DNA of 64,000 nucleotides from Candidatus Zixiibacteriota bacterium (GCA_030613505.1 JAUWLW010000011.1:945-64944), one strand, 5' to 3'. Shown: positions 32,214 to 50,768, numbered from the stretch's first letter. Numbers and translations are program-made. Notes: generated from the letters alone by a model not told the origin.

Positions 32214-32764
32214 TTCCCGAATAAACTACCAAACCATTGTAATAAGTTAGGCGGTTCTTCCTCAACTATAAACTTACCCCTAAGTTCCGGGTATTTGAAA
32301 CCTCGACCCGTACCCGGCCATACTCTCAACTTCCGTGTGAACCCGCAGGATATCGCCCATTCCCGCCACTTGTCTATTTTTTGGTAACACGCGCATATAT
32401 ACAACGTTCCATCACCCGCGATATAAGGCGCGGTATTTCGGAATATCTCGTCAGGACTTATTAATTCTAGTTGCGGGGGCCAATGCCGCAATAAACCGGG
32501 TCCCGGGTAAACGCCATGATGGTAAATTATAATATGGTCGAACCGTCGCCAACCGCTAACACCTTGATAAGTCCGCCACACGAAAGTATTTTGGATCGTA
32601 CTACCGATGTCGTCGGGTTCGGTCGGAACGAAATAGGCAAAATCCAATATGACATCATTCGCCTCGGCCAGGTCGAGATAAGTTTCCTTATCCCCCTCTA
32701 CGTCGCCGGCTTGGCGACTACCAAGGGCTGTGACTATACACGCGAATTCCGTGCGATCGCCCAT
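32210..32764 (-). CDS. hypothetical protein
   Basis: 184 aa, locally lower GC. Overlaps the next gene by 4 nt. Confidence 0.4.
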   Translation of the reverse strand: MGDRTEFACIVTALGSRQAGDVEGDKETYLDLAEANDVILDFAYFVPTEPDDIGSTIQNTFVWRTYQGVSGWRRFDHIIIYHHGVYPGPGLLRHWPPQLELISPDEIFRNTAPYIAGDGTLYICACYQKIDKWREWAISCGFTRKLRVWPGTGRGFKYPELRGKFIVEEEPPNLLQWFGSLFGK

Positions 32765-32840
32765 TTACAATCGTAGTATTATTCGGCCGCTAGAGGCAGC
32801 CGCGGCCTTTCACGTATAACCGGGCGGCTGTTACCGTTAA

Positions 32841-33299
32841 TTAATCGTCGTCGTTGAATGGGAATCCCGGCCCGGGATGTTTATTAAGGCCGAAACTACT
32901 AAAGGCGCTCTTTCCCAGGTCGAAATTCCCCACCGTCGGCGTAGGGATGTTCCTCGATACTTTTAAAGAAAGCTTTACCTTGCCTCGAAGAACGTCCGCT
33001 TTAAATACTTCCCACTCGTGCCAGTACGTCGAAGCCGCCGTCCGCCCCTCCCCGGTCCACCCCTGCTCGCCGTACGCCGAGTTGATGCAGTGGTAGAGCG
33101 TCAGCGCCAGGCAGATGCGCCACACGTACTTGTCGGCGCCGGGGTCCGTCAGGTCGTAGCGGTCGCGCAGGACCGCCTCTATCTCCGCCTCCGCCCGGTC
33201 GCGGTTGGCGGTAACTCGCGCGTCCGCGCACAGGTCGCTCGTAAGCAGCGGATACTCCGTCCGGACGTCGCTTACGTTCACGGGAGTCGTCCAGGCCAT
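32841..33299 (-). CDS. phage gp6-like head-tail connector-like protein (152-aa family, 3 full copies)
   Basis: N-terminal VSDVRTEYPLLTSDLCADARVTANRDRAEAEIEAVLRDRYDL resembles gp6-type connectors. Positioned after the major capsid gene. Confidence 0.45.
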   Translation of the reverse strand: MAWTTPVNVSDVRTEYPLLTSDLCADARVTANRDRAEAEIEAVLRDRYDLTDPGADKYVWRICLALTLYHCINSAYGEQGWTGEGRTAASTYWHEWEVFKADVLRGKVKLSLKVSRNIPTPTVGNFDLGKSAFSSFGLNKHPGPGFPFNDDD

Positions 33300-33691: not shown

Positions 33692-34612
33692 TTAGACGTC
33701 GCCGATTATCGCAAGGTACCACGGGCCGTAGCCGAAGCGGTACCGCTCGTACGTCTTGGTGACGTAGTTGTCGGTATGCTGGTCGGGCTCGAAGACGTTG
33801 ACCTCGAGGTCGATGCGCTTCTGGAATATGAACGGCCTTACGGGCTTGCCTAGGTCGAGGAAGTACCAGGCGGTGGCGCTGGAGATGTAGGGCGTCTGGA
33901 TGAGCGCCAGCTTCTCGTAGAACGGGTTGTAGCCGGCGTTGGCGGTGCCCGCGGCGCCCGGCGTGTTGATGAGCATCTCCCACGCGACGCCGGTGTCGCC
34001 GGCGCCGGTCACGATGTGGGTCGGCCGGACGTCAAGCGGGCTGCCCTTGGGGTCCGTGAAGGCGCGCATTACCTTGAGGACGTCGATGGCGTTTGAGAGT
34101 GACGTCGCCAGATCGGCGGTCCCCACGGCCTTGTTCTGGTCGTCGTTGGACTGGTTGGAGCTGCCGGCGTGGTCGGTGTCGAAGAAGTACTGGCCGTCGT
34201 GGCACGTGGCGGCGGTGCCGCCGGTGACGAGCGAGGCCCAGTTATCCTGGAGCTTGATCTGGTGGCCTATGGCGGCGCTCTGGAACTTCTGGCGGATGTA
34301 GTTGTGCCGGTCGTCCTCCACCATCTTGCGGTGGATGTCGATGGCCAGGCCGTAGGTGTAGTTGGTTAAGGAGTAGCTCTCGTCGTCTAGGCCGTAGTGG
34401 ATGCGGGCGTCCTCGTCGATGCGCCCCGGGACCGGCAAGCGGCCGCCGAAGCCGTAGTACTCTGTTTCGCCGTCGCTCGACGTCACCATAACGGCGTCCT
34501 TCCAGGAGGCGTCCTGGTAGTACGAGTCCTCGTAGATGCGGAAGAACTCCTCCTTGCACGCCACCTCCAGGACCCGGGCGAAGTCGCTCGGCGAAAGGTT
34601 AGGTCCTGCCAT
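33692..34612 (-). CDS. phage major capsid protein (Mu gpT-like size and position)
   Basis: 306 aa, directly after the protease/scaffold and a small gene. No signal peptide. Confidence 0.55.
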   Translation of the reverse strand: MAGPNLSPSDFARVLEVACKEEFFRIYEDSYYQDASWKDAVMVTSSDGETEYYGFGGRLPVPGRIDEDARIHYGLDDESYSLTNYTYGLAIDIHRKMVEDDRHNYIRQKFQSAAIGHQIKLQDNWASLVTGGTAATCHDGQYFFDTDHAGSSNQSNDDQNKAVGTADLATSLSNAIDVLKVMRAFTDPKGSPLDVRPTHIVTGAGDTGVAWEMLINTPGAAGTANAGYNPFYEKLALIQTPYISSATAWYFLDLGKPVRPFIFQKRIDLEVNVFEPDQHTDNYVTKTYERYRFGYGPWYLAIIGDV

Positions 34613-34667: not shown

Positions 34668-35114
34668 TTACGGACAATAGTTGTCGACGGCGAGCACGGC
34701 CGTCGAGGTCAGGTAGTCGACGCAGCAGCCGACCTTGCAGCCGGTGGTCGTGCCGGACTGCGCCGTGGCCGGCGTACCGGAGGCCCCGCCGTCGCAGTAG
34801 AACTCGGTGCCGACGTCGGTGACGGCGGGCGTGCCCTTGACGAACTCGAACAGGCCCTTGCGCCACACCTTTATCTTGGCGGTGCCGTCGCCGGTTACGG
34901 TCTGAGCCGCGACGCCGGCGAAGGTCTCGCTCGCCAGGTTGGCGGCGTACGTCACGTAGCCGGTTAGCGCGGTCGTGTCGTACTCGAAGACCACGAGCGA
35001 GCCCTTGTAGACCGTGACGCCGCTCTTGACGATGTAATGGGTGTAGGCCGAGTCGTCGTTGGGAATGCGGCGCGGGTTACACTCGTGCTCCGCGGTGATG
35101 TTTCCAAACGCCAT
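34668..35114 (-). CDS. hypothetical head protein (decoration-like?)
   Basis: 148 aa between the protease/scaffold and the major capsid. Confidence 0.35.
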   Translation of the reverse strand: MAFGNITAEHECNPRRIPNDDSAYTHYIVKSGVTVYKGSLVVFEYDTTALTGYVTYAANLASETFAGVAAQTVTGDGTAKIKVWRKGLFEFVKGTPAVTDVGTEFYCDGGASGTPATAQSGTTTGCKVGCCVDYLTSTAVLAVDNYCP

Positions 35115-35167: not shown

Positions 35168-36742
35168 TTATAATTGGCCGTAGAGCTCGCCGAGGCGGCG
35201 CTCGATGGCGGCTTCGTCGTAGCCCATCGCCTTAAGCACTTCCACCACTTCGGGGTTCTCGCGCGCCAAAGGCGACGGCTCCGCGGGCCGGCCGTGCTCC
35301 TGGGGCTCGCCTCCGGTGGGCGCGGCGTCGAAGCGGACCTCCAGAGCCGCCGCGGCCTCCATCGCGAGCTCCTTGTCCTTCAGATAGAGCTCGAGCCACT
35401 TGCTTTGATGCGCCGGCTTGGCACGGCCCGCGCGGACCAGCGCCTCGGCGAAGCGTTCCGCCTCGGCCTCGAAGGCCATGCGGTCGTGGGCGGCGCGCTC
35501 GAGCTTCTCCAGCCGGAGATTGTCGCGCTCGGCCTTGACGGCCTCGAAGTCGGTCGCCAGCCGCTCGTGCCGACCCCGGAGCGCCTCGAAGCGGGCGCTC
35601 AGGCCGTCGAGCCGCGTCTCCATCCGGGCGACGTCTTTCGACGGAGCGCCCTCGCCGCGGAAGCCGAGCTTGCCGAGGAACTTCGCCAGCCGCCGCGACT
35701 TAGCGCCTTCGGCCTCGACCGCGGCCTTGTCTTCCTCCGCGGGTTTCTCCCCTTCCGCCTTGGCCTCCTCCAGCAGCGCCTCCAGCTCCTCGCGGACGCG
35801 CTCGCGGTCTTCCTCGGGAATCGGCTCGCCGGTGGACATAGTCTCGGCGTCGAGCGCCGCCAACGCCTCCTCCACGTGCGAGAGCGAGACGTTGCCTTCC
35901 GCGTCGCGGACCGGGAAGTGGCGCAGCTCGCGCGGGACGGTCTTACCCTCCTCGTCGGCCTCGCCGCCGGGCTCTACGTAGGCGAACGACTCGTCGGGCA
36001 GGGCGTCGACGTACTCGGCGTCCCACTTTTCCTCGGGCCCTTCGGCCTTCGGCTCCTTCTCGTCGTCGACGGCGTCGCCGGCGCGGAAGTAGAAGCCGCC
36101 GTCGCGGCGCGCTTCCATCAGCGCCTGGAAGCCGTCCTGTTCGCGGACGTGGGGGTCGAGGGTCAGGGCGACGTGGCGGATGACCTCGTCGTAGCGGCGG
36201 CCGCAGGCCGTGAGCACCGGCCCCACGCCGACGGAGACGTCCTGGATGGTGCCGTCCACGATGCGGGCGGCGGTGTCCTCGTCGGTAATGTTGAAGACGC
36301 CGTAGAGCTTGCCGTCGGCGATCTCGAAGGCCTCCACCCAGCCGGCGTTGTCGGCGGGATGGTAGGAGTGGTGGTACGGGACCCAGGTCTTGACGCCGGC
36401 GGCCCGGGTATCGTTCACCCAGTCCCGCAGGCGCTCGAGCGTGACGTCGACCGTCTTGCCCGGGTCGTCGGGGAGGACGTAGCGGCCCACGCGGATTATC
36501 TCCTTGCGGAAGCGCGCCTCGGCCTTGAGCGTCCACTCGCCTTCGGCCTCCTCGTATTTTTCTTTGGCCTTCTCCCAGGCGACGTCGGCGCACTCCTTCT
36601 GGGCGGCCTCGTCGGTCTTGCCCTTGTCGGCCAGGCAGGCGAAGTAGGACTCGCGCAAGAGCTCGTTGAGCTCCGCGGGGGCGTCCGGGCCGGCCTCGGG
36701 CGGTTTGAGCTTCTTCTCGTCGGGCATATTGAACCCCTCCAA
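35168..36742 (-). CDS. prohead protease/scaffolding fusion protein (Mu gpI-like)
   Basis: N-terminal globular region, then a long Glu/Ala/Arg-rich coiled-coil C-terminal half. Confidence 0.45.
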   Translation of the reverse strand: MEGFNMPDEKKLKPPEAGPDAPAELNELLRESYFACLADKGKTDEAAQKECADVAWEKAKEKYEEAEGEWTLKAEARFRKEIIRVGRYVLPDDPGKTVDVTLERLRDWVNDTRAAGVKTWVPYHHSYHPADNAGWVEAFEIADGKLYGVFNITDEDTAARIVDGTIQDVSVGVGPVLTACGRRYDEVIRHVALTLDPHVREQDGFQALMEARRDGGFYFRAGDAVDDEKEPKAEGPEEKWDAEYVDALPDESFAYVEPGGEADEEGKTVPRELRHFPVRDAEGNVSLSHVEEALAALDAETMSTGEPIPEEDRERVREELEALLEEAKAEGEKPAEEDKAAVEAEGAKSRRLAKFLGKLGFRGEGAPSKDVARMETRLDGLSARFEALRGRHERLATDFEAVKAERDNLRLEKLERAAHDRMAFEAEAERFAEALVRAGRAKPAHQSKWLELYLKDKELAMEAAAALEVRFDAAPTGGEPQEHGRPAEPSPLARENPEVVEVLKAMGYDEAAIERRLGELYGQL

Positions 36743-36772
36743 TCTTAAATTATGGAAAGCTTGCCGGCCGCT

Positions 36773-36849
36773 CGAGGCGCCGGTGGTAAACGCTGCGATT
36801 GATTAATGGAGATTAAGGGAGATGGGAAACTTGCCGCGAGGAAAGGTTG
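36773..36849. repeat. conserved intergenic element, copy B
   Basis: Same core as 31144..31238. Confidence 0.6.
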
Positions 36850-37779
36850 TTACTTATCGTCGGGGGCGGCGGGACGGAAATATTGGATGCGGCCGTTGCC
36901 GGTGTCGGCTACGTAGACGGTGCCGTCCGCGGCGACGGCGATACCTGCAGGGTAATGGAACTCGCCCGGGCCGAGACCGTCGTTACCCCAGGCGCTTACG
37001 AAAGACCCCTCGGCTGTGAAGTGTTGTACACGGTGGTTATAATTATCCGCGACAAATACGTCGCCGTTCGGGCCGACGGCGATGTCGCCCGGGTATAAAA
37101 ACTCGCCTAAACCGGAACCCATTTTACCCCAAGAACCGAGGAATTCCCACTCGGCGTCGAAATACATAACTTTCCCGGAAGTGTTGTTTAATAAATATAT
37201 TATACCCTCGGCCGTTATAGCGATACTCACGAAATCAGTGTAGCGGAATTCTTTACAACGCCACTCCCCTATATATTCCCCCCCGGGCTTGAAGTATTGA
37301 ATCCGGCTGTTATTGTAGTCTACTACGAAAACCGTCCCTAAGGGTCCGAACGCTATACCCGCCGGTCCATGGAACTCGCCCGGGCCCTTACCAGGACCGC
37401 CCCATTTACCGACAAACTCCTTTTCCTTCGAAAAAAACTGCACGTCGTCCCGGTATATATCGGCGACGTATATATTCCCGTTATCGGCTACGGCTACGGT
37501 CGTAGGATATCGGAATTCGCCGTCGCCGTTACCTCCGGAACCGAACGCGCCGAGGAATATACCCTCGGGCGAAAAATATTGTACCCGGGCGTTCCCCGTA
37601 TCGGCAACGTAAACGATGCCTTCAGGGCCGACGGCGACGTCATAAGGAATGTTAAAACAGCCGTTGAAGGCCGCGCTAACCCCCCAAGACCCCGCGTACA
37701 CGTAATCATTTCCGGCCGCCGTCAACCCGGGAGTTAAGAGAAGGACGCAGCTTAAAAAGTTTATGAGGAGTTTATACAT
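36850..37779 (-). CDS. secreted NHL-repeat protein (...YFRPAAPDDK)
   Basis: MYKLLINFLSCVLLLTPGLTAAG signal peptide. NHL repeats. Confidence 0.8.
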   Translation of the reverse strand: MYKLLINFLSCVLLLTPGLTAAGNDYVYAGSWGVSAAFNGCFNIPYDVAVGPEGIVYVADTGNARVQYFSPEGIFLGAFGSGGNGDGEFRYPTTVAVADNGNIYVADIYRDDVQFFSKEKEFVGKWGGPGKGPGEFHGPAGIAFGPLGTVFVVDYNNSRIQYFKPGGEYIGEWRCKEFRYTDFVSIAITAEGIIYLLNNTSGKVMYFDAEWEFLGSWGKMGSGLGEFLYPGDIAVGPNGDVFVADNYNHRVQHFTAEGSFVSAWGNDGLGPGEFHYPAGIAVAADGTVYVADTGNGRIQYFRPAAPDDK

Positions 37780-37794
37780 AGGTTAAGAACGGTA

Positions 37795-38727
37795 CTACTT
37801 ATCGTCCGCGGCGGCGGGGCGGAAGTATTGAATGCGGCCGTTGCCTTTATCAACGACGTATAACAAACCCCCCGCGGAAAAAGCCAAACTACACGGTGCA
37901 TAGAATTCGCCGGCGTTGAAACCCTCTACCCCCAACTTGCCTAAAAAAGAACCTGTCGACGTGAAATATTGAATGCGATGATTAAACTCATCCGCAACGT
38001 ACACGTTGCCATCAGGGCCCACCGTAATACCGGTAGGGAAATCGAATTGCCCGTCGCCAACGCCGTGAGAACCCCACATACCTAAAAAAGAACCGGAACG
38101 GTTAAAATACTGCACCCGATGGTTTTCTGAGTCGGTAACGAAGATTTTACCGCCCGAACCAGCCGCGATATCTCCGGGGTTCCTAAAACACCCCTCTCCC
38201 GTACCGCTGGAACCCCATTCCCTTAAAAATGAACCGGTGGAAGTGAAATGTTTTATACGGTTTTCGAGGCGGTCGGCTACATAAACGTCGCCGTTAGTAT
38301 CCACACCTAGGGCACTCGGAAAAGAAAAAGAACCGCCGACGGTTACGAAGGAACCCCACTCGTATACGAAATCGCCGTCCCGCGTAAACCGTTGTACCTT
38401 CCCGAGTTCGGTTTGGAGAATGTAAATATCGCCGTTGGGGGCTACCTCCACCGCTTCCGGAAAATCAAACTCCCCCTCGCCCGGAGCGTAATTACCCCAC
38501 GTACTTATTACCGACCCGGAAGGCGTATATTTGGCGAGACGTTGCATCCTTAAATCAATTACGTATACGTTTCCATCAGCGCCGACGGCGACGCGCCCGG
38601 GAAGCGAAAGATTCATTGTCCCGTCTAAGGTACGCCACTCCCCCGCATATCGGTATTCATTAGCGATAGATGGCTTACCGCAGGTAAGCGACAAAAAGAC
38701 GAATACCATTAGAAATCGAACGCGCAT
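37795..38727 (-). CDS. secreted NHL-repeat protein (...YFRPAAADDK); near-duplicate of 41406..42338
   Basis: MRVRFLMVFVFLSLTCG... signal peptide. Confidence 0.8.
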   Translation of the reverse strand: MRVRFLMVFVFLSLTCGKPSIANEYRYAGEWRTLDGTMNLSLPGRVAVGADGNVYVIDLRMQRLAKYTPSGSVISTWGNYAPGEGEFDFPEAVEVAPNGDIYILQTELGKVQRFTRDGDFVYEWGSFVTVGGSFSFPSALGVDTNGDVYVADRLENRIKHFTSTGSFLREWGSSGTGEGCFRNPGDIAAGSGGKIFVTDSENHRVQYFNRSGSFLGMWGSHGVGDGQFDFPTGITVGPDGNVYVADEFNHRIQYFTSTGSFLGKLGVEGFNAGEFYAPCSLAFSAGGLLYVVDKGNGRIQYFRPAAADDK

Positions 38728-38841
38728 ATTCTATATCCCGTGGATATCGTAAAACATCTTATATTACTTATTATAGCTATAAAAAGCGGAAACGTAAAGT
38801 CCCTACGTCATCGTGGTAAATATATTAAAATATTTAAACGC

Positions 38842-39540
38842 TTAAGGCCGGACGGGTCCGAAAGGCCAAGGACAAGTATACCGCACCGTAACGTACCAAT
38901 GGGGCGGGTCCCCCGTTAGGTGGTAGAAACCGCCCACGTCGTTGTCACCTATACTGTGCAAGACGGCTGGGTCCATCGGCGGGTCGAATCGGTTGGCGAA
39001 AAAAGTCTTAGCATCAGGCCTCGTAACGACGTCAACGGCGCAACCGTTCCAATGGCCGAACGCGTCGCTTGCGTCCCGAATGCCGTACGGGTCACTCTCG
39101 GGTAAACCATTAATTACCGGCGTACCCAAGCGCCGATAACCCGACGTTAAGTATATAACCGGCTTCATTCCGGCGGGTATGCCCCAGGGGCGAGGGAATA
39201 ATTTCTTATGCTCCTCCCACGCCGCGTCGCGCCACTCGCGCAGCTTCTCGATTAACTCCGGACGCGCCAACATACACCGATCGCCGTGCGCCGTCGTCGC
39301 GACCTTATTGGGGATAGGCTCCAGGACATTTTTCTCTATATCGTCGACGACAGCCTGTAAATCCTCCCACGAACTTACGCCCGGTTGGTGCCTTTTAAAG
39401 CTCGTTATTAAATCCCTAATCGCGGCCCGTTCTTCCCAGTCGTTGGAATACGCGTACGACGCCAGCGTTCGGAAGCGGCAAGAATTCAACCCCCGAACCG
39501 TGGAGTGCCGGGCCAATGGTCCCATCGGGTCGGCAGCCAT
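38842..39540 (-). CDS. peptidase M15-family (VanY / L-Ala-D-Glu endopeptidase-like) zinc peptidase
   Basis: LTSGYRRLGT...SDAFGHWNGCAVDVV...DPPHWYV. About 85% nt identity to 42452..43150. Confidence 0.55.
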   Translation of the reverse strand: MAADPMGPLARHSTVRGLNSCRFRTLASYAYSNDWEERAAIRDLITSFKRHQPGVSSWEDLQAVVDDIEKNVLEPIPNKVATTAHGDRCMLARPELIEKLREWRDAAWEEHKKLFPRPWGIPAGMKPVIYLTSGYRRLGTPVINGLPESDPYGIRDASDAFGHWNGCAVDVVTRPDAKTFFANRFDPPMDPAVLHSIGDNDVGGFYHLTGDPPHWYVTVRYTCPWPFGPVRP

Positions 39541-39548
39541 TTTTCCCC

Positions 39549-40010
39549 TTAGTCGTCGTCTTCGCTAAACGGAAAACCCGGCCCGGCGTGTTTATCCAGG
39601 CCGAAACTGCTGAAGACGCTTTTTCCCAGGTCGAAGTTCCCCACCGTAGGCGTAGGGATGTTCCTCGACACAGTTAAAGAGAGTTTAAGCTGGCCGCGAA
39701 GGACGTCGCCTTTGAACACTTCCCACTCGTGCCAGTACGTCGAGGCCGCCGTCCGCCCCTCGCCGGTCCAACCCTGCTCGCCGTAGGCGGAGTTGATGCA
39801 GTGGTAGAGCGTAAGCGCCAGGCACACGCGCCACACGTACTTGTCGGCGCCGGGGTCGGAAAGGTCGTAGCGGTCGCGCAGGACCGCCTCTATCTCCGCC
39901 TCCGCCCGGTCGCGGTTGGCGGTTACCCTAGCGTCCGCGCACAGCTCGCTCGTCAGCAGCGGGTACTCGGTCCGCACGTCGCTCACGTTCACGGGAGTTG
40001 TCCAGGCCAT
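39549..40010 (-). CDS. connector-like protein (152-aa family)
   Basis: MAWTTPVNVSDVRTEYPLLTSELCADARVTANRDRAEAEIEAVLRDRYDL.... Alternative ATG at 40016. Confidence 0.45.
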   Translation of the reverse strand: MAWTTPVNVSDVRTEYPLLTSELCADARVTANRDRAEAEIEAVLRDRYDLSDPGADKYVWRVCLALTLYHCINSAYGEQGWTGEGRTAASTYWHEWEVFKGDVLRGQLKLSLTVSRNIPTPTVGNFDLGKSVFSSFGLDKHAGPGFPFSEDDD

Positions 40011-40029
40011 TACCATACACCTTCCTTCG

Positions 40030-40130
40030 CCGGCCTCGAGCCGCTCAAGGCGCCGGTGGTAAACGCTGCGATCGTTTAATGGGGATTAAGCGCGATGGGA
40101 AACTTGCTGTGGGGAAACTTAATTAATTAC
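40030..40130. repeat. conserved intergenic element, copy C
   Basis: Same core. Here it lies downstream of the LLYVE-family gene. Confidence 0.55.
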
Positions 40131-40140
40131 GGCCGGGCCG

Positions 40141-41211
40141 CTACTCGACGTAAAGCAAGCCGTAGTCGTACGGCGGCGGGGCTTCGGCAGCCTCCGCTTC
40201 CGGGATGGAGACGGGAACCGGTTCCGCGGAGGTCCCGTCGGGATACGTTACCGCGATATGCGCGGTGTCCTCGTCCCTCGGGGGAGTTAAAATATATACA
40301 AAAGCATCGCGGGAGAGCGAGTAACATACAGGCCCCGGCGTTCCGTTGACCTTCACCTCGCGGTAACCGCCTGGCGCGCCGGCGTAGCGGAGGTAGATCG
40401 TACGTTCGTCGGCCTCCTCGGCCTTTGCGGTATCGTCGGCGTACGCTCTCGGGCCGGCGATCGCCGTCGGCGCCGCGGGTAGGAGTTGGCCTACTCCCTC
40501 CGGGCCGCCGTACGGAACGTACCGCGTCGGCTCGCGGCCGAAATGGTCCGGGAATATTCCGAGGGGAACGACGTCGAACGTCTTCTTGTCGACGTAGCCG
40601 TAAAGCCGCCGTCGGCCGTAAGAGGTTTTATCGTCATACAAAACGCAAATCCTGTCGTCGTCGGCCTCGCCGTCCAGGAAGACGGATCGTCCCAAGCGGG
40701 CGAGCTCAAGCGGAGGCCCCGCGGTCGGCTCGTACCGATATAGGACCGTCTCGCGGTACTTCTCGCCGTCGGCCCCGGTCGCGACCGCTTCCGCGCCGAC
40801 GTAGAACGCCCCCTCGCCGGCGTCGAAAATTACGTCCCCGTACGGCTGACGGGGCCCCTCTAATTCCAGGATAACCTCGGCCTCCCCGGACTCGCTCGAG
40901 GCGCCGGGGGCGGCGAGGCGGTAACAGACGAAACGCCCGTCGGCCTTCAGGTCGAAGCCGGCGACCAGGACCGTCTCCCACGGCTCGTCCGCGACGGCGC
41001 TCCATACGTGTAAATCGTGGAAGGAGGCGAGCTCCTCTCCCTCGCCGGTTCGTACGTCGACGAGGTAGAGGGTGAAGAGGTACTCGTCGCCGGCGTTCTT
41101 AAGCCACTCGCCGTAGAGACATCGCCAGGGGTCTTCTTCGGCGGCAGAGAAGGCGACCGTACTTAAAAGAAATAAACCCGCGGCGTAAAACGCCAATAGC
41201 TTACGGCCCAT
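40141..41211 (-). CDS. secreted hypothetical protein, 'LLYVE' family
   Basis: Signal peptide MGRKLLAFYAAGLFLLSTVAFSAA. Ends ...YDYGLLYVE. Confidence 0.6.
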   Translation of the reverse strand: MGRKLLAFYAAGLFLLSTVAFSAAEEDPWRCLYGEWLKNAGDEYLFTLYLVDVRTGEGEELASFHDLHVWSAVADEPWETVLVAGFDLKADGRFVCYRLAAPGASSESGEAEVILELEGPRQPYGDVIFDAGEGAFYVGAEAVATGADGEKYRETVLYRYEPTAGPPLELARLGRSVFLDGEADDDRICVLYDDKTSYGRRRLYGYVDKKTFDVVPLGIFPDHFGREPTRYVPYGGPEGVGQLLPAAPTAIAGPRAYADDTAKAEEADERTIYLRYAGAPGGYREVKVNGTPGPVCYSLSRDAFVYILTPPRDEDTAHIAVTYPDGTSAEPVPVSIPEAEAAEAPPPYDYGLLYVE

Positions 41212-41282
41212 CTCCGACGCCTCCCGTTCAGCGCGTTAAACGACGTAGTTCTACACGAGGATTCGATTGCGTCTTCGCCGTG

Positions 41283-41312
41283 AAATTAACACCGGGTCTA
41301 ACAGTTGTCAAG
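41283..41312 (-). promoter_or_regulatory. sigma70-like promoter TTGACA-18-TAATTT for 40141..41211
   Basis: Minus strand: -35 at 41312-41307, -10 at 41288-41283. SD GGGAGG before the ATG. Confidence 0.35.
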
Positions 41313-41319
41313 GAGCATA

Positions 41320-41405
41320 CCGGCCGCTCGAGGCGCCGGTGGTAAACGCTGTAATCGTTTAATAGGGATTAAGCGAGACGTGAAACTTGCTACGAGGGAA
41401 CGTTA
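41320..41405. repeat. conserved intergenic element, copy D
   Basis: Same core. Confidence 0.6.
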
Positions 41406-42338
41406 TTACTTATCTTCCGGCGCGACGCGGCGGAAATATTGGACGCGGCCGTTACCTTTATCAACGACGTATAACAACCCGCTAGCGGAAAACGCCAAAC
41501 TACATGGTGCGTAGAACTCGCCGGCGTTATAACCCTCTACCCCCCACGTACCTAAAAAAGAACCATTGGGCGTAAAATATTGAATGCGATGATTAAGCTC
41601 ATCAGCAACGTATACGTTACCGTCGGGGCCTACCGTAATACCAGTAGGGAAATCGAATTGCCCGACACCAACCCCGTGAGAACCCCACATACCCAAAAAA
41701 GAACCCGAACGATTAAAATATTGCACGCGATGGTTTTCCGAGTCGGTAACGAAGATTTCGCCGCCCGAACCAGCCGCGATATCTCCGGGGTCCCTAAAAC
41801 AACCCTCACCGCCACCCTTCGAACCCCATTCCCCTAAAACCGAACCGGTGGAATTGAAATGTTTAATACGGTTTTCCAGGCGGTCGGCTACGTAAACGTC
41901 GCCGTTAGCGGCCACACCCAAAGCGCTAGGAAAAGAAAAAGGACCTCCGACGGTTACAAAGGACCCCCACTCGTATACGAAATCGCCATCCCGCGTAAAC
42001 CGCTGGACCTTCCCGAGCTCGGTTTGGAGAATGTAAATATCGCCGTTGGGGGCTACCTCCACCGCTTCCGGGAAATCAAACTCCCCCTCGCCCTCGGCGA
42101 AATTACCCCACGTACTTATTACCGACCCGGAAGGCGTATATTTGGCGAGACGTTGCATGCTTAAATCAATTACGTATACGTTTCCTTCAACGCCGACGGC
42201 AACACGGCCGGGAAGTGAAAAATTCATTGCCCCGTCCAAGGTACGCCACTCGCCCGCATATTCGTATTCGTTACCGATAAAAGGCCTACCGAATGCGAGC
42301 GACAAAAGGATAAATACCATTAAAAATCGAACCCGCAT
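41406..42338 (-). CDS. secreted NHL-repeat protein (...YFRRVAPEDK)
   Basis: Near-duplicate of 37795..38727. Confidence 0.8.
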   Translation of the reverse strand: MRVRFLMVFILLSLAFGRPFIGNEYEYAGEWRTLDGAMNFSLPGRVAVGVEGNVYVIDLSMQRLAKYTPSGSVISTWGNFAEGEGEFDFPEAVEVAPNGDIYILQTELGKVQRFTRDGDFVYEWGSFVTVGGPFSFPSALGVAANGDVYVADRLENRIKHFNSTGSVLGEWGSKGGGEGCFRDPGDIAAGSGGEIFVTDSENHRVQYFNRSGSFLGMWGSHGVGVGQFDFPTGITVGPDGNVYVADELNHRIQYFTPNGSFLGTWGVEGYNAGEFYAPCSLAFSASGLLYVVDKGNGRVQYFRRVAPEDK

Positions 42339-42451
42339 ATTCTACATCCCGTGGACGTCGTTAAATATCTTATTGTCTTATTATAGCTATTGAAAGCGGA
42401 AACGTAAAGCCCTTACGTAATCGTGGTAAATGGATTAGAATATTTAAACGC

Positions 42452-43150
42452 TTAAGGGCGGGCGGGCCCGAAAGGCCAAGGACAAGTATACCGGACATTA
42501 ACGTACCAATGGGGCGGGTCGCCCGGCAAGTCGGAAAATCCCTCCACGTCGTTGAGACCTATACTTTTTAAGACAGCTGGGTCCATCGGCGGGTCGAATT
42601 GGTTAGCGAAAAAAGTTTTAGCTTCCGGCCTAGTAACAACGTCAACGGCGCAACCGTTCCAATGGCCGAACGCGTCCCCGGCGTCCCGGACGCCGTAAGG
42701 GTCGTCTTCGGGGTAACCGTTAAGTATTGTCTTACCCAAGCGACGATAACCCGACGTTAGGTAGATAACCGGCTTCCTTTCGGCGCGTTGGCCTTTGGGG
42801 CGAGGGAATAACTTCTTGTGCTCCTCCCACGCTGCGTCGCGCCACTCGCGCAGCTTCTCGATTAACTCCGGACGCGCCAACATACATCGGTCGGCGTGGT
42901 CTGTCGTAGCGACGGTGGTCGGAATGGGAACTAGGATATTCTTCTCGATGTCGTCGACGACGGCCTGTAAATCCTCCCACGAACTTACGCCCGGTTGGTG
43001 CTTTTTAAAACTCGCAATCAAATCCCTTATCGCAGTCCGTTCTTCCGAGTCGTCGGAATACGCGTACGACGCCAACGTTCGGAAGCGGCACGAGTTCAAC
43101 CCCCGAACCAAGGAATATCGGGCCAAAGGTCCCATAGGATCGGTAGCCAT
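42452..43150 (-). CDS. peptidase M15-family zinc peptidase (duplicate)
   Basis: SGYRRLGK...FGHWNGCAVDVV...PPHWYV. Confidence 0.55.
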   Translation of the reverse strand: MATDPMGPLARYSLVRGLNSCRFRTLASYAYSDDSEERTAIRDLIASFKKHQPGVSSWEDLQAVVDDIEKNILVPIPTTVATTDHADRCMLARPELIEKLREWRDAAWEEHKKLFPRPKGQRAERKPVIYLTSGYRRLGKTILNGYPEDDPYGVRDAGDAFGHWNGCAVDVVTRPEAKTFFANQFDPPMDPAVLKSIGLNDVEGFSDLPGDPPHWYVNVRYTCPWPFGPARP

Positions 43151-43158
43151 TTTCCCCC

Positions 43159-43620
43159 TTAGTCGTCGTCTTCGCCGAACGGGAATCCCGGACCCGGATG
43201 TTTATTCAAGCCGAAACTGCTGAAGGCGCTCTTTCCCAGATCGAAGTTCCCCACCGTCGGCGTAGGGATGTTCCTCGACACAGTTAAAGAGAGTTTAAGC
43301 TGACCGCGAAGGACGTCGCCTTTGAACACTTCCCACTCGTGCCAGTACGTCGAGGCCGCCGTCCGCCCCTCGCCGGTCCAGCCCTGTTCGCCGTAGGCGG
43401 AGTTGATGCAGTGGTAGAGCGTCAGCGCCAGGCAGATGCGCCACACGTACTTGTCGGCGCCCGGGTCGGTCAGCGCGTAGCGGTCGCGCAGGACCGCCTC
43501 TATCTCCGCCTCCGCGCGGTCGCGGTTGGCGGTAACGCGCGCGTCCGCGCACAGGTCGCTCGTCAGCAGCGGGTACTCCGTCCGAACGTCGCTCACGTTA
43601 ACGGGAGTCGTCCATGACAT
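43159..43620 (-). CDS. connector-like protein (152-aa family)
   Basis: MSWTTPVNVSDVRTEYPLL.... Its start is 6 nt after the portal stop. Confidence 0.45.
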   Translation of the reverse strand: MSWTTPVNVSDVRTEYPLLTSDLCADARVTANRDRAEAEIEAVLRDRYALTDPGADKYVWRICLALTLYHCINSAYGEQGWTGEGRTAASTYWHEWEVFKGDVLRGQLKLSLTVSRNIPTPTVGNFDLGKSAFSSFGLNKHPGPGFPFGEDDD

Positions 43621-43626
43621 CGCCTT

Positions 43627-44925
43627 TCACCTTCCTGGTTGCGCCCCGACGGTTTCCGCCACATCCCCCTCGCCCTTGGGCATGGGCTCTTCCTCGGCGG
43701 CGGCGGGGCCGGCGGTCGGGGGGGGCGAGGCCGGCGTCTCTTCCGGCATCTTGAGGCCCATCTGCGCCACCTTGTCGCGGCAGGCTTCGATGGTGCGGCG
43801 GTCGGCGTTGGCCGAGAGGATGCCGCGGCACAGCTCGAGTATGAACTCGCGCTTGTCGTCGGAGAGTGGCTCGGCCTCGAGGTAGCACGTCGGCGGTTTT
43901 TGGAAGTTGTACTGGACCAGCTTCTTGACGTTGTGCTCGTTCTCGGCGCGCAGGACGTCGCCGGCGATGCCGTCGGTGGTCTTGGTGAAGAACTTGGAGT
44001 GGACCTCGGCCTGCTTGTACGCGCCCACCTCGCCCTGCGTCACGACGCGGTCCGGGATGCGGAGCGCGCGGAACATCTCGACGTTGAAGTAGTCGAGCTT
44101 CCCTACCCAGTGGCTGCCGTCGCCGGCGGGCGGGACAACGTCGACGTCCCACAGCGGGTTGCGGCCGTCGTCGAAGACCTGGGGCAGCGTGACGTAGGAG
44201 TTGTCGCGCACGTCGCGGCCCAGCGTCTGCGCCGCGCCGCGGTTGGTTACGTCGTCGCCGGTGTCGGGCGGATACTTCACCTTGACGAAGGGGGTGCCGA
44301 AGCGCTCGGCCTCGCGCAGCATGAACAACGTCAGCATCTCGTGGTTGTACCAGGCGCGGTAGCAGGACTTGGTGGCCGGGATGCCGTAGAGGTTGCCGAA
44401 CTCGTCGTCGTGGGCGTACCAGGCCGACTTGTCGGCGGGGACGTTTATGATGTCGCCGGCGAGCTGCTGGAATCCGTTGTAGGAGCCGTGCTCGTCGGCC
44501 AACCAGCGGCAGTTCTCGGGGTGCGGGTCGCGCAACTCGCGGAAGACCCACCTGGGCGCGCCGTGGTAGTCCACCGAGGTCCAGACGTGCTCGAGCGGCG
44601 CGTAACCGAAGTCGAGGGCGTTGAGGCACATTTTAGTGAAGCGGTCGCTCCACGGCTCCAGGTACTGCGACTCGACGAAGCGGCGCACGTCGGCGTCGTC
44701 GCACACCACGCGCTTCTCCGCCGCCAGCACCGCCATTTTGATGACGGCCAGGCCGAAGTGAATTTGCGGGTACTCGCGCATCCGCTTGAGCGAGGAGAAC
44801 GATATCGACGAGGGGTTGTAGACGCCCAGCTCGGCGATGAGCCGCGCGGCGTACTGGTAATAAAAACGGGTCAGCGACGCCTGATACGCCGCCGGGGTTT
44901 TTTTGCGGTCTTTATTCTGCGCCAT
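43627..44925 (-). CDS. phage portal protein (putative)
   Basis: 432 aa, overlaps the TerL stop by 14 nt. Acidic/Pro-rich C-terminus. Position is canonical. Confidence 0.55.
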   Translation of the reverse strand: MAQNKDRKKTPAAYQASLTRFYYQYAARLIAELGVYNPSSISFSSLKRMREYPQIHFGLAVIKMAVLAAEKRVVCDDADVRRFVESQYLEPWSDRFTKMCLNALDFGYAPLEHVWTSVDYHGAPRWVFRELRDPHPENCRWLADEHGSYNGFQQLAGDIINVPADKSAWYAHDDEFGNLYGIPATKSCYRAWYNHEMLTLFMLREAERFGTPFVKVKYPPDTGDDVTNRGAAQTLGRDVRDNSYVTLPQVFDDGRNPLWDVDVVPPAGDGSHWVGKLDYFNVEMFRALRIPDRVVTQGEVGAYKQAEVHSKFFTKTTDGIAGDVLRAENEHNVKKLVQYNFQKPPTCYLEAEPLSDDKREFILELCRGILSANADRRTIEACRDKVAQMGLKMPEETPASPPPTAGPAAAEEEPMPKGEGDVAETVGAQPGR

Positions 44926-46216
44926 AGTCTAAACCTCTGCTTTGGTATACCCGGCCGCCGTCGGCGGTCGGTAGGGCGCTCGAGCTCCCGCGCCCCAATC
45001 CCCAACAGGCCAGCGCCAGCGCGGTCACGGCGTCGTCGTGGTAGCCGGCCGGCGCGCCGTAGCGGACGCCCCCTCCCGGGAGCTGCTCGGCGGCGTAGAT
45101 CTCGAGCTCGCTCAGTAGCGCCGGCACGTCCGGGAAGCGAACGGTTCGCTCCGCCAGCGCCAGCGCCAGATTCTCCACCAGGCGGCGCTTGGTCTCGGCG
45201 GTGAACTTGTAGCCGCGCGCCGGGACGCCCAGCGACTTCAAGCGGTCGTAGACCGGGTCGCCTAGGCCGGTGCTGTCGAGCCACACCGTCGCGTCGTGGT
45301 AGCGGCTCGAGGCGCTGCGGACCTTCGCCACCTGGAACTCCCAGTCGAGCTGGTTGAAGCGCTCGAAGTGGACCAGCGCCCGGCTCGAGCGCTTGAGCAC
45401 GCACATCACGGTGAAGTCGGTCGTCTTGGCGAGGTCGCAGCCGACGACGTAGGTCTCGTCCGGCTGCGGCTCCTCCAGGTCGCCGGCGACGCACTCGCGG
45501 ATGTCGTGGAAGACGCCGCCCAGGTCGCCCAGGAACTCGGCCAGAATTTCCTGGCGGTAGACGTTCTCGGGTAGGCTGCGGGCCTCGGCGTCGATGCTGG
45601 CCGCGGGGAGGATGCCGTCGTAACTGGTGAAGTGGAAGCCGACGTAGCCCGGTTCCGCGGCGGCGGCTCGCGCCCACAGCTCGTGCGCCTGGTTGAGGCC
45701 CTTGGGCGTGAAGATGAAGAGGGCGGGCGCGTCGCGGGCCATAAGGGTAGGGCGGACGCACTCCTCCCAGGCGTAGCGGCTCCAGAGGCTGAACTCCTCG
45801 GCCACCAGGCCGGCGACGGAGAGCGGCCGGACAGCGTCCGGGTTGTCCATCGAGCGCAGGATTATTTTGGCGTCGTTGGCCAGCGTCAATACGTGCTCCG
45901 TCTTGTTGTAGGCGTCGCCCCAGCCGCCGCCCCGGAGGGCTTCGGCCGGGATGGCGCGGATCATTTCGGGGACGAGCTGGTCGCGCAGGTAAGCGTACTC
46001 GGGCGCGGCGACGAGAACGTACGCGCCGGGTTGGGCGTCGCAGGCCCAGTCGCGGGCGACGCGCACGGCGGCGAAGGTCTTGCCGAACTTGCGGCCGGCG
46101 CGCACGACGACGCGCCTGTGTTTATCGAGAACGCACGCGCGGTAGACGGCATATTGCTTAGGATTTCGCCTTAGCGTTGCGTCCCTTATTCTTATGCGAG
46201 TTTTCGGGAGGCACAA
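44912..46216 (-). CDS. terminase large subunit
   Basis: Walker A-like VRAGRKFGKT. Nuclease-region acidic motifs VGCDLAKTTDF and HDD. Confidence 0.75.
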   Translation of the reverse strand: MCLPKTRIRIRDATLRRNPKQYAVYRACVLDKHRRVVVRAGRKFGKTFAAVRVARDWACDAQPGAYVLVAAPEYAYLRDQLVPEMIRAIPAEALRGGGWGDAYNKTEHVLTLANDAKIILRSMDNPDAVRPLSVAGLVAEEFSLWSRYAWEECVRPTLMARDAPALFIFTPKGLNQAHELWARAAAAEPGYVGFHFTSYDGILPAASIDAEARSLPENVYRQEILAEFLGDLGGVFHDIRECVAGDLEEPQPDETYVVGCDLAKTTDFTVMCVLKRSSRALVHFERFNQLDWEFQVAKVRSASSRYHDATVWLDSTGLGDPVYDRLKSLGVPARGYKFTAETKRRLVENLALALAERTVRFPDVPALLSELEIYAAEQLPGGGVRYGAPAGYHDDAVTALALACWGLGRGSSSALPTADGGRVYQSRGLDYGAE

Positions 46217-47834: not shown

Positions 47835-47856
47835 GGGGCGCAAAGCTTTGCGCCCC
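47835..47856. repeat. palindrome family member GGGGCGCAAAGCTTTGCGCCCC
   Basis: Perfect 22-bp palindrome abutting the cupin gene stop. Confidence 0.6.
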
Positions 47857-48194
47857 TACAGACGCCGATACCTGTCCGCCTCGTCGAAGATGTCCAACAG
47901 GCGGGAGCCCGCTTTAATGCGGGCGGTATGCGGGGCGCCGGCGGGAACGAAGTACGTATCGCCTCTCCGGTAAACGGCCTTCTCGCCGGCCATCGTCAGC
48001 TCGACCTCGCCGTCCAGGACGACGACCCACTGCGCCGCGTGCGACTCCTCGGGCGCGTCGACGTCGTCGTCGAACGCGACGAAGACCACCTGCTTACGCT
48101 CGCCCTGCAAGAGGTACGCACGCACGCGCTCGCCGGGGACGTCGGCCCGCGGCAGATTGGTTATGATTTCCGGAAAGAAGTCCTCTTGCACCAA
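47856..48194 (-). CDS. cupin-domain protein
   Basis: 112 aa. Conserved G(D)TY..P.G.PH. Confidence 0.65.
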   Translation of the reverse strand: MVQEDFFPEIITNLPRADVPGERVRAYLLQGERKQVVFVAFDDDVDAPEESHAAQWVVVLDGEVELTMAGEKAVYRRGDTYFVPAGAPHTARIKAGSRLLDIFDEADRYRRL

Positions 48195-48222: not shown

Positions 48223-48561
48223 CTACTTAGCGCGGTAGCGGTCCTCCTGGTCGAAGAGGTCCTGGAGGCTCGAGCCGCCTTTGATGCGCGCGCTGTGGGG
48301 GACGCCGGCGGCGATGGAGTACGTATCTCCTTTGTGGAAAGTATTCGTCTCGCCGCCGACGGTCAGCTCGATCTCGCCGTCCAGGACCGCGCCCCACTGC
48401 GCCGCGTGGTCGTGTTCGGGCACGTCGACGTCGTCGGCGAAGGTCATGAAGACGAGCTGCTTGCCGTCGCCCTGGAACAGGTACGCGCGTACGCCGGCGA
48501 GCGGAACGTCGGCCTGCGGCAACGTCGTAACGATATCCGGGAAGAAGTCCTCCTGGGGCAA
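48223..48561 (-). CDS. cupin-domain protein (tandem paralog)
   Basis: 112 aa, about 65% identical to 47856..48194. Confidence 0.65.
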   Translation of the reverse strand: MPQEDFFPDIVTTLPQADVPLAGVRAYLFQGDGKQLVFMTFADDVDVPEHDHAAQWGAVLDGEIELTVGGETNTFHKGDTYSIAAGVPHSARIKGGSSLQDLFDQEDRYRAK

Positions 48562-48622: not shown

Positions 48623-49573
48623 TTACCGGAACAGCGCCTTCACCTTCCCCAGCGACGTGGGGGAGATGGCGGGGTTTTCCCATTTGAAATATTGTACCCG
48701 GTGGTGAGAATCAGCTATGTAAACGCGCTTGCCACTTGTCGGGAAAGCCACGTCCTCAGGGAAAACGAATTCCCCGTAAAATAAACCCAGGAAAGAACCT
48801 GTGGGCGTGAAATATTGGATACGACTATGGCCCATATCGGCGACGTAAACGTCGCCTTGGGCCGTAACGGCAACGCCACGAGGCATTAAGAATTGCCCGG
48901 CGCCATGCCCGGGAGACCCCCACATACCGATAAAAGACCCGTTAGCCGTGAAGTATTGTACGCGTTCGTTATCGATGTCTACGACGTAAACGTTGCCGCT
49001 GGGGGCCACCGCCAAGCCCCACAGACGGTTAAATTCGGCGGGGCCGGAGCCGGGGCTGCCCCACTTACCGAGGTACGAACCGGCGGAGGTGAAGTATTGG
49101 ACGCGGTCATTACCCCAATCGGCGACGTAAACGTTACCGCTCGAGGCGACGGCCACGCCGACGGGGAGGACAAATTGGCCGTTACCGGGGCCCAACGAAC
49201 CCCATTTGCCTAAAAAAGAACCCTCCGACGTGAAGTACTGAACGCGGTTATTGAAACGGTCGGCGACGTAAACGTCGCCGTTGTCGGCTACGGCTATGTG
49301 CATGGTTATCGTAAATTCGCCGTCGGCCGTACCGAGGCTACCCCACATACCTAAAAACGAACCCGTAGGCGTGAAATATTGAATGCGATGGTTGCCGTGG
49401 TCGGTCACGTATACGTTACCGCTGGGGGCTACCGCCAACCCGTAAATGTGTATGAACTCCCCTTTCCCGGAACCGTACGAACCCCACTGGCCCTCGAACA
49501 CCCACTCGCCCCAGGCGCAAAAGGCCGCCAACGCATACAGCGCCGCGGCCGTCATTATCGTCAGCTTCCTCAT
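48623..49573 (-). CDS. secreted NHL-repeat protein with C-terminal tag ...NPAISPTSLGKVKALFR
   Basis: Signal peptide MRKLTIMTAAALYALAAFCAWG. NHL repeats. Tag. Confidence 0.85.
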   Translation of the reverse strand: MRKLTIMTAAALYALAAFCAWGEWVFEGQWGSYGSGKGEFIHIYGLAVAPSGNVYVTDHGNHRIQYFTPTGSFLGMWGSLGTADGEFTITMHIAVADNGDVYVADRFNNRVQYFTSEGSFLGKWGSLGPGNGQFVLPVGVAVASSGNVYVADWGNDRVQYFTSAGSYLGKWGSPGSGPAEFNRLWGLAVAPSGNVYVVDIDNERVQYFTANGSFIGMWGSPGHGAGQFLMPRGVAVTAQGDVYVADMGHSRIQYFTPTGSFLGLFYGEFVFPEDVAFPTSGKRVYIADSHHRVQYFKWENPAISPTSLGKVKALFR

Positions 49574-49640
49574 TTCCCTTTACCTCCTCAAGCTACTGTC
49601 CTCTTAGATTAACTATAACAGGAAATACCGGACAGCGCCA

Positions 49641-49672
49641 ACTAAAAAAAGGGCCGACCTTAGGGTCGACCC
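49641..49672 (-). terminator. rho-independent terminator (GGGCCGACC-UUAG-GGUCGACCC + U7)
   Basis: Hairpin followed by a U-run on the minus sense. Confidence 0.55.
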
Positions 49673-49696
49673 GTACGTATATGAGCAAAAGGGAGG

Positions 49697-50659: not shown

Positions 50660-50740
50660 TACCTGTTACCTCCTCGAGCTACCGCCCTCTGCGCATAAAT
50701 ATAATATAAAAACCTCGACGGCCACAAATAAAAACGGGCC

Positions 50741-50768
50741 GACCTTAAGGCCGGCGCGTACGTATATC
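50741..50768 (-). terminator. rho-independent terminator (GCCGGCC-UUAA-GGUCGGC + U5)
   Basis: Same terminator family as 49641 and 55062. Confidence 0.5.

Follow-up and report, generated by a model that had tools for sequence, protein, structure and literature searches.

Phages normally have a single copy of the head-tail adaptor gene. Temperate phages also carry morons, accessory genes that are transcribed independently within late operons, and the slots for these normally contain small genes that stand alone. The adaptor of phage Mu, gp36, is a dodecamer with a helical domain and a C-arm that is inserted into the portal clip, and this adaptor class is structurally similar to the adaptors of siphophages and myophages (PMC11915804). 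In Mu-like Pseudomonas phages, the interval from gene G to the protease/scaffold gene houses anti-CRISPR operons in numerous combinations (PMC3993853). Here we describe a stretch of 64,000 nucleotides from a Candidatus Zixiibacteriota bacterium (GCA_030613505.1 JAUWLW010000011.1:945-64944; hereafter, the window), in which a Mu-like head-neck gene cluster carries, between its portal and protease/scaffold genes, a tandem duplication of a three-gene unit coding for a putative gp36-type adaptor paralog, a LAS/M15-like peptidase candidate and an NHL β-propeller predicted to be secreted.

Self-BLAST aligns 37787-40026 (unit b) collinearly with 41398-43636 (unit a), at 87.7% nucleotide identity over 2240 nt of the minus strand, close to the 85% that a sequence-only reading of this DNA had estimated, and the repeat finder likewise returned the repeat families of the two units. 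The limits of the repeat, 10-16 nt upstream of the gp36-like start and 8 nt past the NHL stop codon, define a unit of exactly three genes. All relevant genes of the cluster are on the minus strand, as are the sites described for them below. Unit a comprises gp36a (43159-43620, starting 6 nt past the portal stop), M15a (42452-43150) and NHL310a (41406-42338); unit b comprises gp36b (39549-40016), M15b (38842-39540) and NHL310b (37795-38727). The two are separated by p356 (40141-41211), a gene of 356 codons whose product ends in ...GLLYVE, the LLYVE-family gene of the sequence-only reading. An extra gene for a secreted NHL propeller, NHL309 (36850-37779), about 39% identical to the NHL310 genes, lies on the protease side. 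The array is bounded by a Mu-type portal gene (43627-44925; PF06074, E 9e-29; PHROG 113) and by p524, a head maturation protease/scaffold of 524 residues (35168-36742; PHROG 976, E 1e-10), so that its proposed placement between portal and prohead protease is correct. The third, more diverged unit that had also been noticed (31239-33299) is present as well: its gp36c (32841-33299) is 89-90% identical in nucleotides to both other gp36 copies, its middle gene p184 (32210-32764), of 184 codons, is unrelated to M15a/b, and its secreted NHL propeller, NHL324 (31239-32213), shares about 34% amino acid identity with the NHL310 proteins. A fourth gp36 copy is a truncated 5' fragment (30949-31111), which self-BLAST finds 94.5% identical to 33137-33299.

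The same tandem layout is found, collinear, on two SPAdes contigs from other samples, one of 13.3 kb (L049 in our numbering of related loci), 98.5% identical over 12,973 nt of the window, and one of 7.8 kb (L050), 99.3% identical over 7,840 nt. Both contain portal, gp36, M15, NHL310, p356, gp36, M15, NHL310, NHL309 and protease genes. Tandem modules are present too on unrelated contigs, one of them 311 kb long. The tandem duplication noticed in the sequence-only reading is genuine and inherited.

Between the copies, identity is fairly even along the unit (80-95%), with a single 150-nt tract inside gp36 at 98-99%. At the protein level gp36a and gp36b are 93% identical, with a synonymous divergence (dS) of 0.285 and a ratio of nonsynonymous to synonymous divergence (dN/dS) of 0.11; M15a and M15b are 84% identical (dS 0.49, dN/dS 0.19), and NHL310a and NHL310b 88% (dS 0.395, dN/dS 0.16). 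Comparison of gp36a with copies b and c gives dN/dS values of 0.08-0.11. All six duplicated genes are intact, and the three genes of the unit are, to judge from these ratios, under purifying selection. M15a and M15b are mutual closest relatives (next outside match, 80%), and so are NHL310a and NHL310b (next outside match, 41-47%). As the genes have remained intact at a dS of 0.3-0.5, with dN/dS of 0.11-0.19, we regard the units as old diverging paralogs and not as a dosage amplification. Reverse transcriptase genes, as expected of a diversity-generating retroelement, were not found among the open reading frames scanned, although no dedicated search was made, and the differences between the copies are evenly spread.

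The nearest relative, L001, is 96% identical in nucleotides over terminase and portal, and it lacks unit a: its portal, which has a C-terminal extension, leads directly into the promoter region of p356. The breakpoints fall at about 43655, the 3' end of the portal, and at about 41321, just past a conserved intergenic element of some 90 nt. The duplication is thus old relative to strain divergence, and polymorphic among close relatives. In L001 (3086-3329) the portal open reading frame runs on into the extension, which is about 75 residues long and winged-helix-like in appearance; the portal of the window stops earlier, at the unit-a junction.

Annotation of about 50 related loci, drawn from genomes and metagenomes and mostly labelled Zixibacteria, places the duplication within a wider pattern. 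In 22 of the 39 cases that are informative, an M15-like gene comes directly after gp36, and in two an 'HGC-type' gene like p184; the enzyme gene directly precedes an NHL gene in 29 of 34; and NHL is followed in 17 cases by p226, a conserved gene of 226 codons that closes the modules in relatives and lies at 22871-23551 in the window. The gene before gp36 is p240 (11 cases), p124 (6), the portal (4) or p226 (4, which are tandem modules). The series gp36, enzyme, NHL and p226 is a recurrent building block, and it occupies three fixed slots, of which one follows the portal, another the canonical neck gene p124 and the third the chaperone-like p240. A 100-kb contig with a capsid protein 98% identical to that of the window (L009) holds the module at all three of them, and tandem modules occur in L010, L011 and L020. 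In the window, the first slot contains units a and b, the intervening p356, and NHL309; the second contains gp36c, p184, NHL324 and then a gp36'/'p226 fusion (30878-31111); and the third contains p240, p257, NHL367, NHL379, p234, p446 and p226, with no copy of gp36. The content of the portal-protease slot differs among L001, L004, L006, L009 and L010. Within the module, gp36 is conserved (median identity, 74%), in contrast to the hypervariable enzyme (26%) and NHL protein (38%). In a tree of 41 gp36 copies the three copies of the window cluster together, and slot-specific lineages are absent, the median identity being 0.75 both within and between slots.

The p226 family (window and about 20 relatives) has a variable acidic N-terminus and a near-invariant C-terminal region of 150 residues, with a glycine-rich hydrophobic stretch, GLVRSPTLALVGEREPEF and GYGFGPGDFG. 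Searches of Pfam, the PDB and 50,697 phage genomes gave no match to it. As GLVRSPTLALVGEREPEF recalls the C-termini of tape-measure proteins, p226 was considered as a tape-measure-like protein; this lead is unconfirmed, and the tape measure of JBD26 lacks the motif.

Several traces of recombination accompany the modules. The conserved 90-nt intergenic element, whose core CGTTTACCACCGGCGCCTCG is invariant, is found at 41312-41412, at 40029-40129 upstream of gp36b, at 31145-31245, and at 36756-36856 upstream of the protease/scaffold gene, which is its conserved 'home' position in relatives too. The element may be regulatory or recombination-prone DNA, perhaps a late-promoter/operator segment doubling as a recombination site. 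A structured RNA was considered and rejected: RNAalifold on eight copies gave four pairs, no covariation and -3 kcal/mol, and Rfam searched over 28-48 kb, at E up to 1, returned no meaningful match. The fusion at 30878-31111 is a 77-residue open reading frame that joins the first 56 codons of gp36 to the last 25 of p226; at this place, directly before p145, relatives have an intact p226. We read the fusion as the deletion scar of a former module end. In L008, a 3' fragment of the portal gene is set before a gp36 copy. The copies of the 90-nt element, the gp36'/'p226 scar, the portal fragment of L008 and the breakpoints of L001 lead us to infer homologous or illegitimate recombination between repeats.

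The sequence-only reading likened the 152-residue proteins to connectors of the gp6 type. Their likeness to a connector is borne out, more specifically as the Mu gp36/JBD30 adaptor, and general searches returned no gp6-family protein among the sequence and fold matches of the 152-155-residue proteins. Four concordant lines of evidence, each individually weak, point to Mu gp36-type head-tail adaptors. First, PF07030 (Phage_Mu_Gp36) scores gp36a at 17.3 bits and gp36c at 18.5 bits, both under the gathering cut-off of 24.7 bits, and does not match gp36b; a homologous protein cluster (P0058) carries a precomputed match to this family, and JGI names two clusters 'phage gp36-like'. Second, the top four PDB matches found by Foldseek for the AlphaFold2 model of gp36c are Mu and JBD30 adaptors, namely entries of the Mu neck, the Mu neck subunit and the JBD30 connector, although the matches are weak (E 0.1-0.6, TM-score 0.40-0.54, probability 0.75-0.92); the model (pLDDT 67.5) predicts helices over residues 12-105 and a low-confidence, extended or disordered C-arm. 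Third, hhalign aligns gp36 with JBD26 gp45, the gene in adaptor position, over 101 columns with P 0.002. Fourth, gp36c (152 residues) is in the canonical neck position: the major capsid protein gene is followed by the small gene p124, gp36c, p145, p251 and the chaperone-like gene, in parallel with JBD26. gp36a and gp36b lie outside that position.

The enzyme gene follows gp36 after 8 nt in both units, and its product has 232 residues and no signal peptide. M15a and M15b match no Pfam, PHROG or PDB sequence, PDB phmmer and PDB profile searches included. A word search of 5.8 billion proteins returned only nine relatives, and a HMMER scan of 1.84 billion representatives, 44. Four positions, R136, H163, D170 and H214 in M15a, are invariant in 46 sequences, and an Asp or Glu is conserved three residues before the last histidine. 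The resulting motifs, S/G-x-Y-R, H-x2-G-x-A-x-D and [DE]-x-x-H (in M15a, R136, H163-x6-D170 and D211-x2-H214), have the order and spacing of GYR, HSRGSAID and EWWH in VanX, whose reference sequence was verified as PDB 1r44_A; hhalign relates the family to the ExxH region of VanX with P 6e-4. The AlphaFold2 model of M15a (pLDDT 80.8) has VanX as its best PDB match, a weak one (E 0.15), and its best viral fold matches are the endolysin of Clavibacter phage CMP1 (probability 0.99) and several 'Peptidase M15B' proteins. Of the earlier assignment to M15 peptidases, the motif set therefore stands, as M15/LAS-like, the fold is tentatively of the same kind, and membership by sequence model, for want of a Pfam match, does not stand. 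We regard the protein as a divergent LAS/M15-like zinc peptidase candidate and not as a member of the family. The enzyme family seems to be restricted to these Mu-like elements.

In some modules the place of the M15-like gene is taken by the HGC-type family, which has an invariant histidine in an HG motif and an invariant cysteine; in unit c this is p184, and the gp36-p184 adjacency recurs in L016. The family has no Pfam or PHROG match. One M15-like and one HGC-type protein are about 85% identical over an N-terminal segment of some 60 residues, and their C-termini are unrelated; M15a and M15b keep merely a vestige of this shared segment. HGC-type members are encoded at 32210-32764, 28074-28847 and 25031-25735 in the window, at 12510-13199 and 14289-15104 in L006, and at 475-1029 in L016. 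Some share a near-identical 60-residue N-terminus (...MGPL...EIMGQKAEE) with M15-like proteins such as P0110.

The NHL proteins are β-propellers, with six blades in NHL310a, and this call of the sequence-only reading is solid: PF01436 matches them at 122-136 bits against a cut-off of 20 bits (E around 1e-36; 2e-36 for NHL310a and 2e-37 for NHL310b). Every one of them has a basic start followed by a hydrophobic, signal-like N-terminal segment, as does p356 a signal-like N-terminus, whereas the gp36 and M15-like proteins have none. The spacer of 113 nt upstream of NHL310a contains a sigma-70-like promoter, TTTACG-17-TATAAT (42380-42408); the same site precedes NHL310b (38770-38798), and p356 has its own, TTGACA-17-TAATTT (41283-41311), conserved in L001 and L004. 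Such sites occur in 8 of 25 spacers between enzyme and NHL genes, both window copies included, against about 0.4 expected from the shuffle rate. These spacers mostly measure 60-190 nt, as opposed to the gap between gp36 and enzyme, which is 8 nt or less, often an overlap, in 12 of 20 loci. The short gap suggests that the gp36 paralog and the enzyme are co-translated within the late operon, and the promoter-like sites and signal-like N-termini suggest that NHL and p356 are independently transcribed and exported, in the manner of morons. Against the idea that the propellers are cargo, their signal peptides and their own sigma-70-like promoters indicate predicted exported proteins of the cell envelope, not virion cargo.

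p356 has no Pfam or PHROG match. A paralog, p347 (8185-9228), is 28% identical to it; both are secreted and both end in LLYVE, and members of this family sit between gp36 and p226 in modules of L033, L041 and L012. Further secreted NHL paralogs without an adjacent enzyme gene are found at 6868-7824 and at about 48.6-51.9, 54.1-55.0 and 57.3-59.2 kb. Among the latter run (48623-59181) are a tetratricopeptide-repeat (TPR) protein and an FG-GAP protein with a type IX secretion system sorting domain (52037-54139); part of the region is syntenic with the DNA upstream of the terminase in L003.

All together, these observations allow us to propose the following account. The module is inherited as a tandem duplicate in the portal-protease/scaffold accessory slot of a Mu-like (D3112/JBD-like) head-neck-tail cluster. 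It has a fixed order, with a gp36 paralog, a coupled LAS/M15-like (or other) enzyme, one or two NHL genes with a promoter of their own and, in relatives, p226; and homologous recombination between gp36 genes, between p226 genes and between copies of the 90-nt element would copy, exchange and delete it. Units a and b would stem from a single copying event of this kind; they now differ by 12%, and both would have been maintained in working order. As to function, the late operon may supply the adaptor paralog and the peptidase jointly, and the two may act at the virion or inside it, the peptidase for example as an adaptor-associated cell-wall hydrolase during genome delivery, and the NHL proteins, transcribed separately and exported to the envelope, may serve as moron-type conversion or exclusion factors. 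On balance, we consider this account, an old and maintained duplication of a family-wide recombining module with a late adaptor and peptidase and envelope NHL proteins, to be probable as a whole. In the architecture and the evolutionary course we have high confidence; the functional part is tentative.

A number of points weigh against this account. The dS of 0.3-0.5 between the units lies far above the 4% core divergence from L001, which suggests either that L001 lost unit a, or that unit a was acquired by recombination from a close relative and not by duplication in situ. The identity of gp36 is built on individually weak scores; the M15 call depends on weak fold scores (Foldseek E 0.02-0.15) and on motifs, and the Pfam M15 model is matched neither by the 42 remote homologs scanned nor by the divergent relatives. 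The presence of the peptidase and of the extra adaptors in the virion, and the peptidase activity itself, are predicted roles. No covariation is seen between the divergences of M15-like and NHL proteins (Mantel rho 0.11, p 0.2, n=13), and a specific partnership between the two is thus unproven. Finally, no integrase or transposase in the window can be assigned to the cluster and no tape-measure gene is recognisable there; the cluster may belong to a phage that is still active, to a prophage in decay or to a domesticated particle.

A different function for the same architecture would be that of polymorphic effector-immunity modules on the phage particle, in which gp36 loads the enzyme, NHL is a periplasmic immunity protein and p226 a membrane-active helper, and in which duplication and shuffling diversify the repertoire for superinfection exclusion or for competition between phages or lysogens. 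This is unlikely, although a good deal of the evidence suits it: the fixed order of adaptor, enzyme and exported protein; the tight coupling of gp36 and enzyme, whose divergences correlate (rho 0.39, p 0.001); the N-terminal segment shared by M15-like and HGC-type proteins with unrelated C-termini; the hypervariable enzyme and NHL beside the conserved gp36; the promoters and signal peptides of the NHL genes; and the enzyme-less NHL run at 48.6-59.2 kb. In addition, a separate Amidase_2 endolysin is encoded at 5559-6233, so that lysis does not require the M15-like protein, which is not obviously a lysis enzyme. But enzyme and NHL, adjacent as they are in 29 of 34 cases, show no covariation, for which reason the effector-immunity reading stays speculative, and M15a/b hold only the vestige of the shared segment. 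NHL propellers are not known to us to inhibit hydrolases, and the literature searched on Zixibacteria prophages, and on NHL proteins with hydrolase immunity, offered nothing relevant. A particular form of the idea, which we hold to be decidedly unlikely, would have the gp36 paralogs join the dodecameric ring under the portal as loading adaptors, each tethering the enzyme encoded next to it, with the NHL proteins as periplasmic immunity or exclusion factors of the lysogen. One particle would then carry mixed, exchangeable effectors that attack the cell wall, in a phage-borne polymorphic effector-immunity system that would be organised like the adaptor-effector-immunity islands of type VI secretion systems (T6SS) and diversified by duplications like that of units a and b.

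There is a slim chance that the copies are neutral clutter of a decaying or domesticated prophage, redundant products of recombination that have no function and have not yet decayed. Genes of replication, integration or transposition assignable to the cluster are lacking, and the tail candidates (8-17.4 kb), like the early-gene candidates, have no family match in PHROGs or Pfam; moreover, an opposite-strand metabolic block at 17.6-22.8 kb splits the structural genes, the scar gene lies at 30878-31111, and gp36 has formed no slot-specific lineages. Neutral copies would nevertheless hardly be intact in all six genes after a dS of 0.3-0.5, at dN/dS 0.11-0.19, nor would they be expected to keep the promoter upstream of NHL310 in both copies, the layout in three strains and the order of the module over dozens of diverged loci. 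Selection for dosage, which the sequence-only reading had named beside diversification, with the duplication raising the expression of hydrolase and propeller, is very improbable: two intact tandem copies in the same orientation speak for it, but they differ by 12% in nucleotides and, in the enzyme, by 16% in amino acids, and the 96%-identical L001 manages without unit a, a pattern that fits old diverging paralogs; no overall homogenisation is seen, and the multiple modules of relatives usually hold different enzyme and NHL variants. That the assembler placed two strain variants of a single unit side by side, in what is probably a metagenome assembly with short conserved intergenic repeats at the unit borders, has a negligible probability, given three independent assemblies from different samples and of slightly different strains that agree in layout and differ by 0.7-1.5%, a copy divergence of 12%, far too high for collapse or mis-joining of strain variants, and the tandem modules on unrelated contigs, including that of 311 kb.

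The remainder of the cluster is that of a Mu-like head and neck. The large terminase (44912-46216) matches Pfam Terminase_6C/6N and PHROG 2 (E 1e-38). Relatives of the portal, 88-98% identical in amino acids, are found in seven species-level metagenome-assembled genomes, the informative records being labelled Candidatus Zixiibacteriota. A virion structural protein is encoded at 34668-35114 (Pfam/PHROGs), and the major capsid protein, of the Mu gpT type, at 33692-34612 (PF10124, E 8e-32); the latter is about 28% identical to the capsid proteins of the Mu-like siphophages of the D3112/JBD type, its most similar phage group. Relatives of the portal or of gp36 were not found among the viral contigs of IMG/VR. 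The plus-strand block at 17630-22776, between p226 and an 869-residue gene, interrupts the structural genes and encodes a PhzF-like protein, an ICMT/PEMT methyltransferase, two zinc-ribbon proteins, a methyltransferase and a secreted protein of 255 residues. In L052, homologous blocks separate the capsid gene from p124, and in L006 an ICMT homolog does so, a recurrence that suggests a mobile accessory cassette of this family of elements. The secreted proteins encoded on the plus strand at 9996-10844 and 22009-22776 share the C-terminal ...SxGxVKA(I/L)(Y/F)R, a candidate sorting signal, and have no family matches.

Upstream of the terminase, on the minus strand, a tandem pair of cupin genes (47856-48194 and 48223-48561), of 112 codons each, is 75% identical in nucleotides, and cupins are found at the equivalent place in L002, L003, L004, L006, L010 and L049. 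A Fic/DOC protein (61950-63134, minus strand) matches PF02661, with Fic_N, and PHROG 5978 (E 1e-70). Positions 1-4900 form a segment of low GC content (49-52%), with an Xis-like helix-turn-helix protein (2578-2874), a Cro/C1-type helix-turn-helix protein (3092-3670) and a tyrosine integrase (3683-4690) directly beside tRNA-Pro (4808-4882). This integrase was considered as that of the cluster, for which it is unproven: it abuts the tRNA gene and the low-GC segment and resembles that of a separate element. The segment is probably a separate integrative element and not the integration module of the Mu-like cluster.

Compared with the adaptors of Mu and JBD30 (PF07030; PDB 9khx, 9knu, 5ydn, 8rka), the gp36 proteins described here have a similar predicted helical domain and extended C-terminal arm, and the adaptor gene of JBD26 occupies the same place as gp36c. 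Here, however, each element has three to four copies of the gene instead of one, most of them directly preceding an enzyme gene, and the scores stay under the family thresholds. The 232-residue enzymes, in turn, resemble the LAS/M15 zinc peptidases VanX (1r44) and the M15B-type endolysin of CMP1 in the order and spacing of their motifs and in their best fold matches, and differ from them by an additional N-terminal helical region of about 120 residues and by the absence, in the window proteins and 42 remote homologs, of any Pfam, PHROG or PDB sequence match. With this enzyme and p226, two uncharacterised protein families are defined.

As regards position, the locus shares with the anti-CRISPR operons of the JBD30/JBD26/D3112 group a hypervariable, cassette-like accessory region among conserved head genes. 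It lies between portal and protease, varies among relatives and has predicted promoter-like sites before NHL310a, NHL310b and p356, although no homolog of MuF or G was detected between the two genes in the window with Pfam and PHROGs. Instead of the small Acr/Aca genes, it contains a paralog of a structural gene, an enzyme and large secreted propellers, and the module also fills two further slots, in the neck and tail regions. The arrangement had been called very unusual, a judgement to be tempered since accessory operons are documented at the corresponding position of the head operon in Mu-like Pseudomonas phages (PMC3993853) and the module itself is family-wide, at dozens of loci.

Like morons, the NHL310 genes and p356 have sigma-70-like promoters of their own inside the late operon and predicted exported products; unlike morons, they travel in a fixed order with a duplicated gp36 and an enzyme, as a module that is iterated as a whole. 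T6SS, Rhs and contact-dependent inhibition (CDI) systems form adaptor-effector-immunity islands and orphan toxin arrays. The likeness to these, as an analogy of working only, consists in a conserved upstream gene, a variable enzyme and an exported protein, in arrays recombined at conserved flanks, and in a shared N-terminus with swapped C-terminal domains. The modules differ in belonging to a phage head-neck operon and not to a secretion system, and the test of covariation does not support an immunity function or cognate specificity.

For a module that is headed by a duplicated adaptor gene and repeated at three structural slots, we found no earlier example. Read conservatively, the locus illustrates how recombination drives the evolution of a head operon module by module, leaving clear breakpoints and scars. 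Should the adaptor paralogs work jointly with the LAS-like enzymes at the virion, phages would have a new means of carrying and exchanging envelope-active proteins, and the abundant NHL propeller genes of these genomes would gain a testable role. In comparison with the single adaptor of Mu and JBD30, the structural adaptor gene is here the leader of a mobile four-gene module, iterated at three points of the operon and shuffled across a Mu-like family in an uncultivated phylum.

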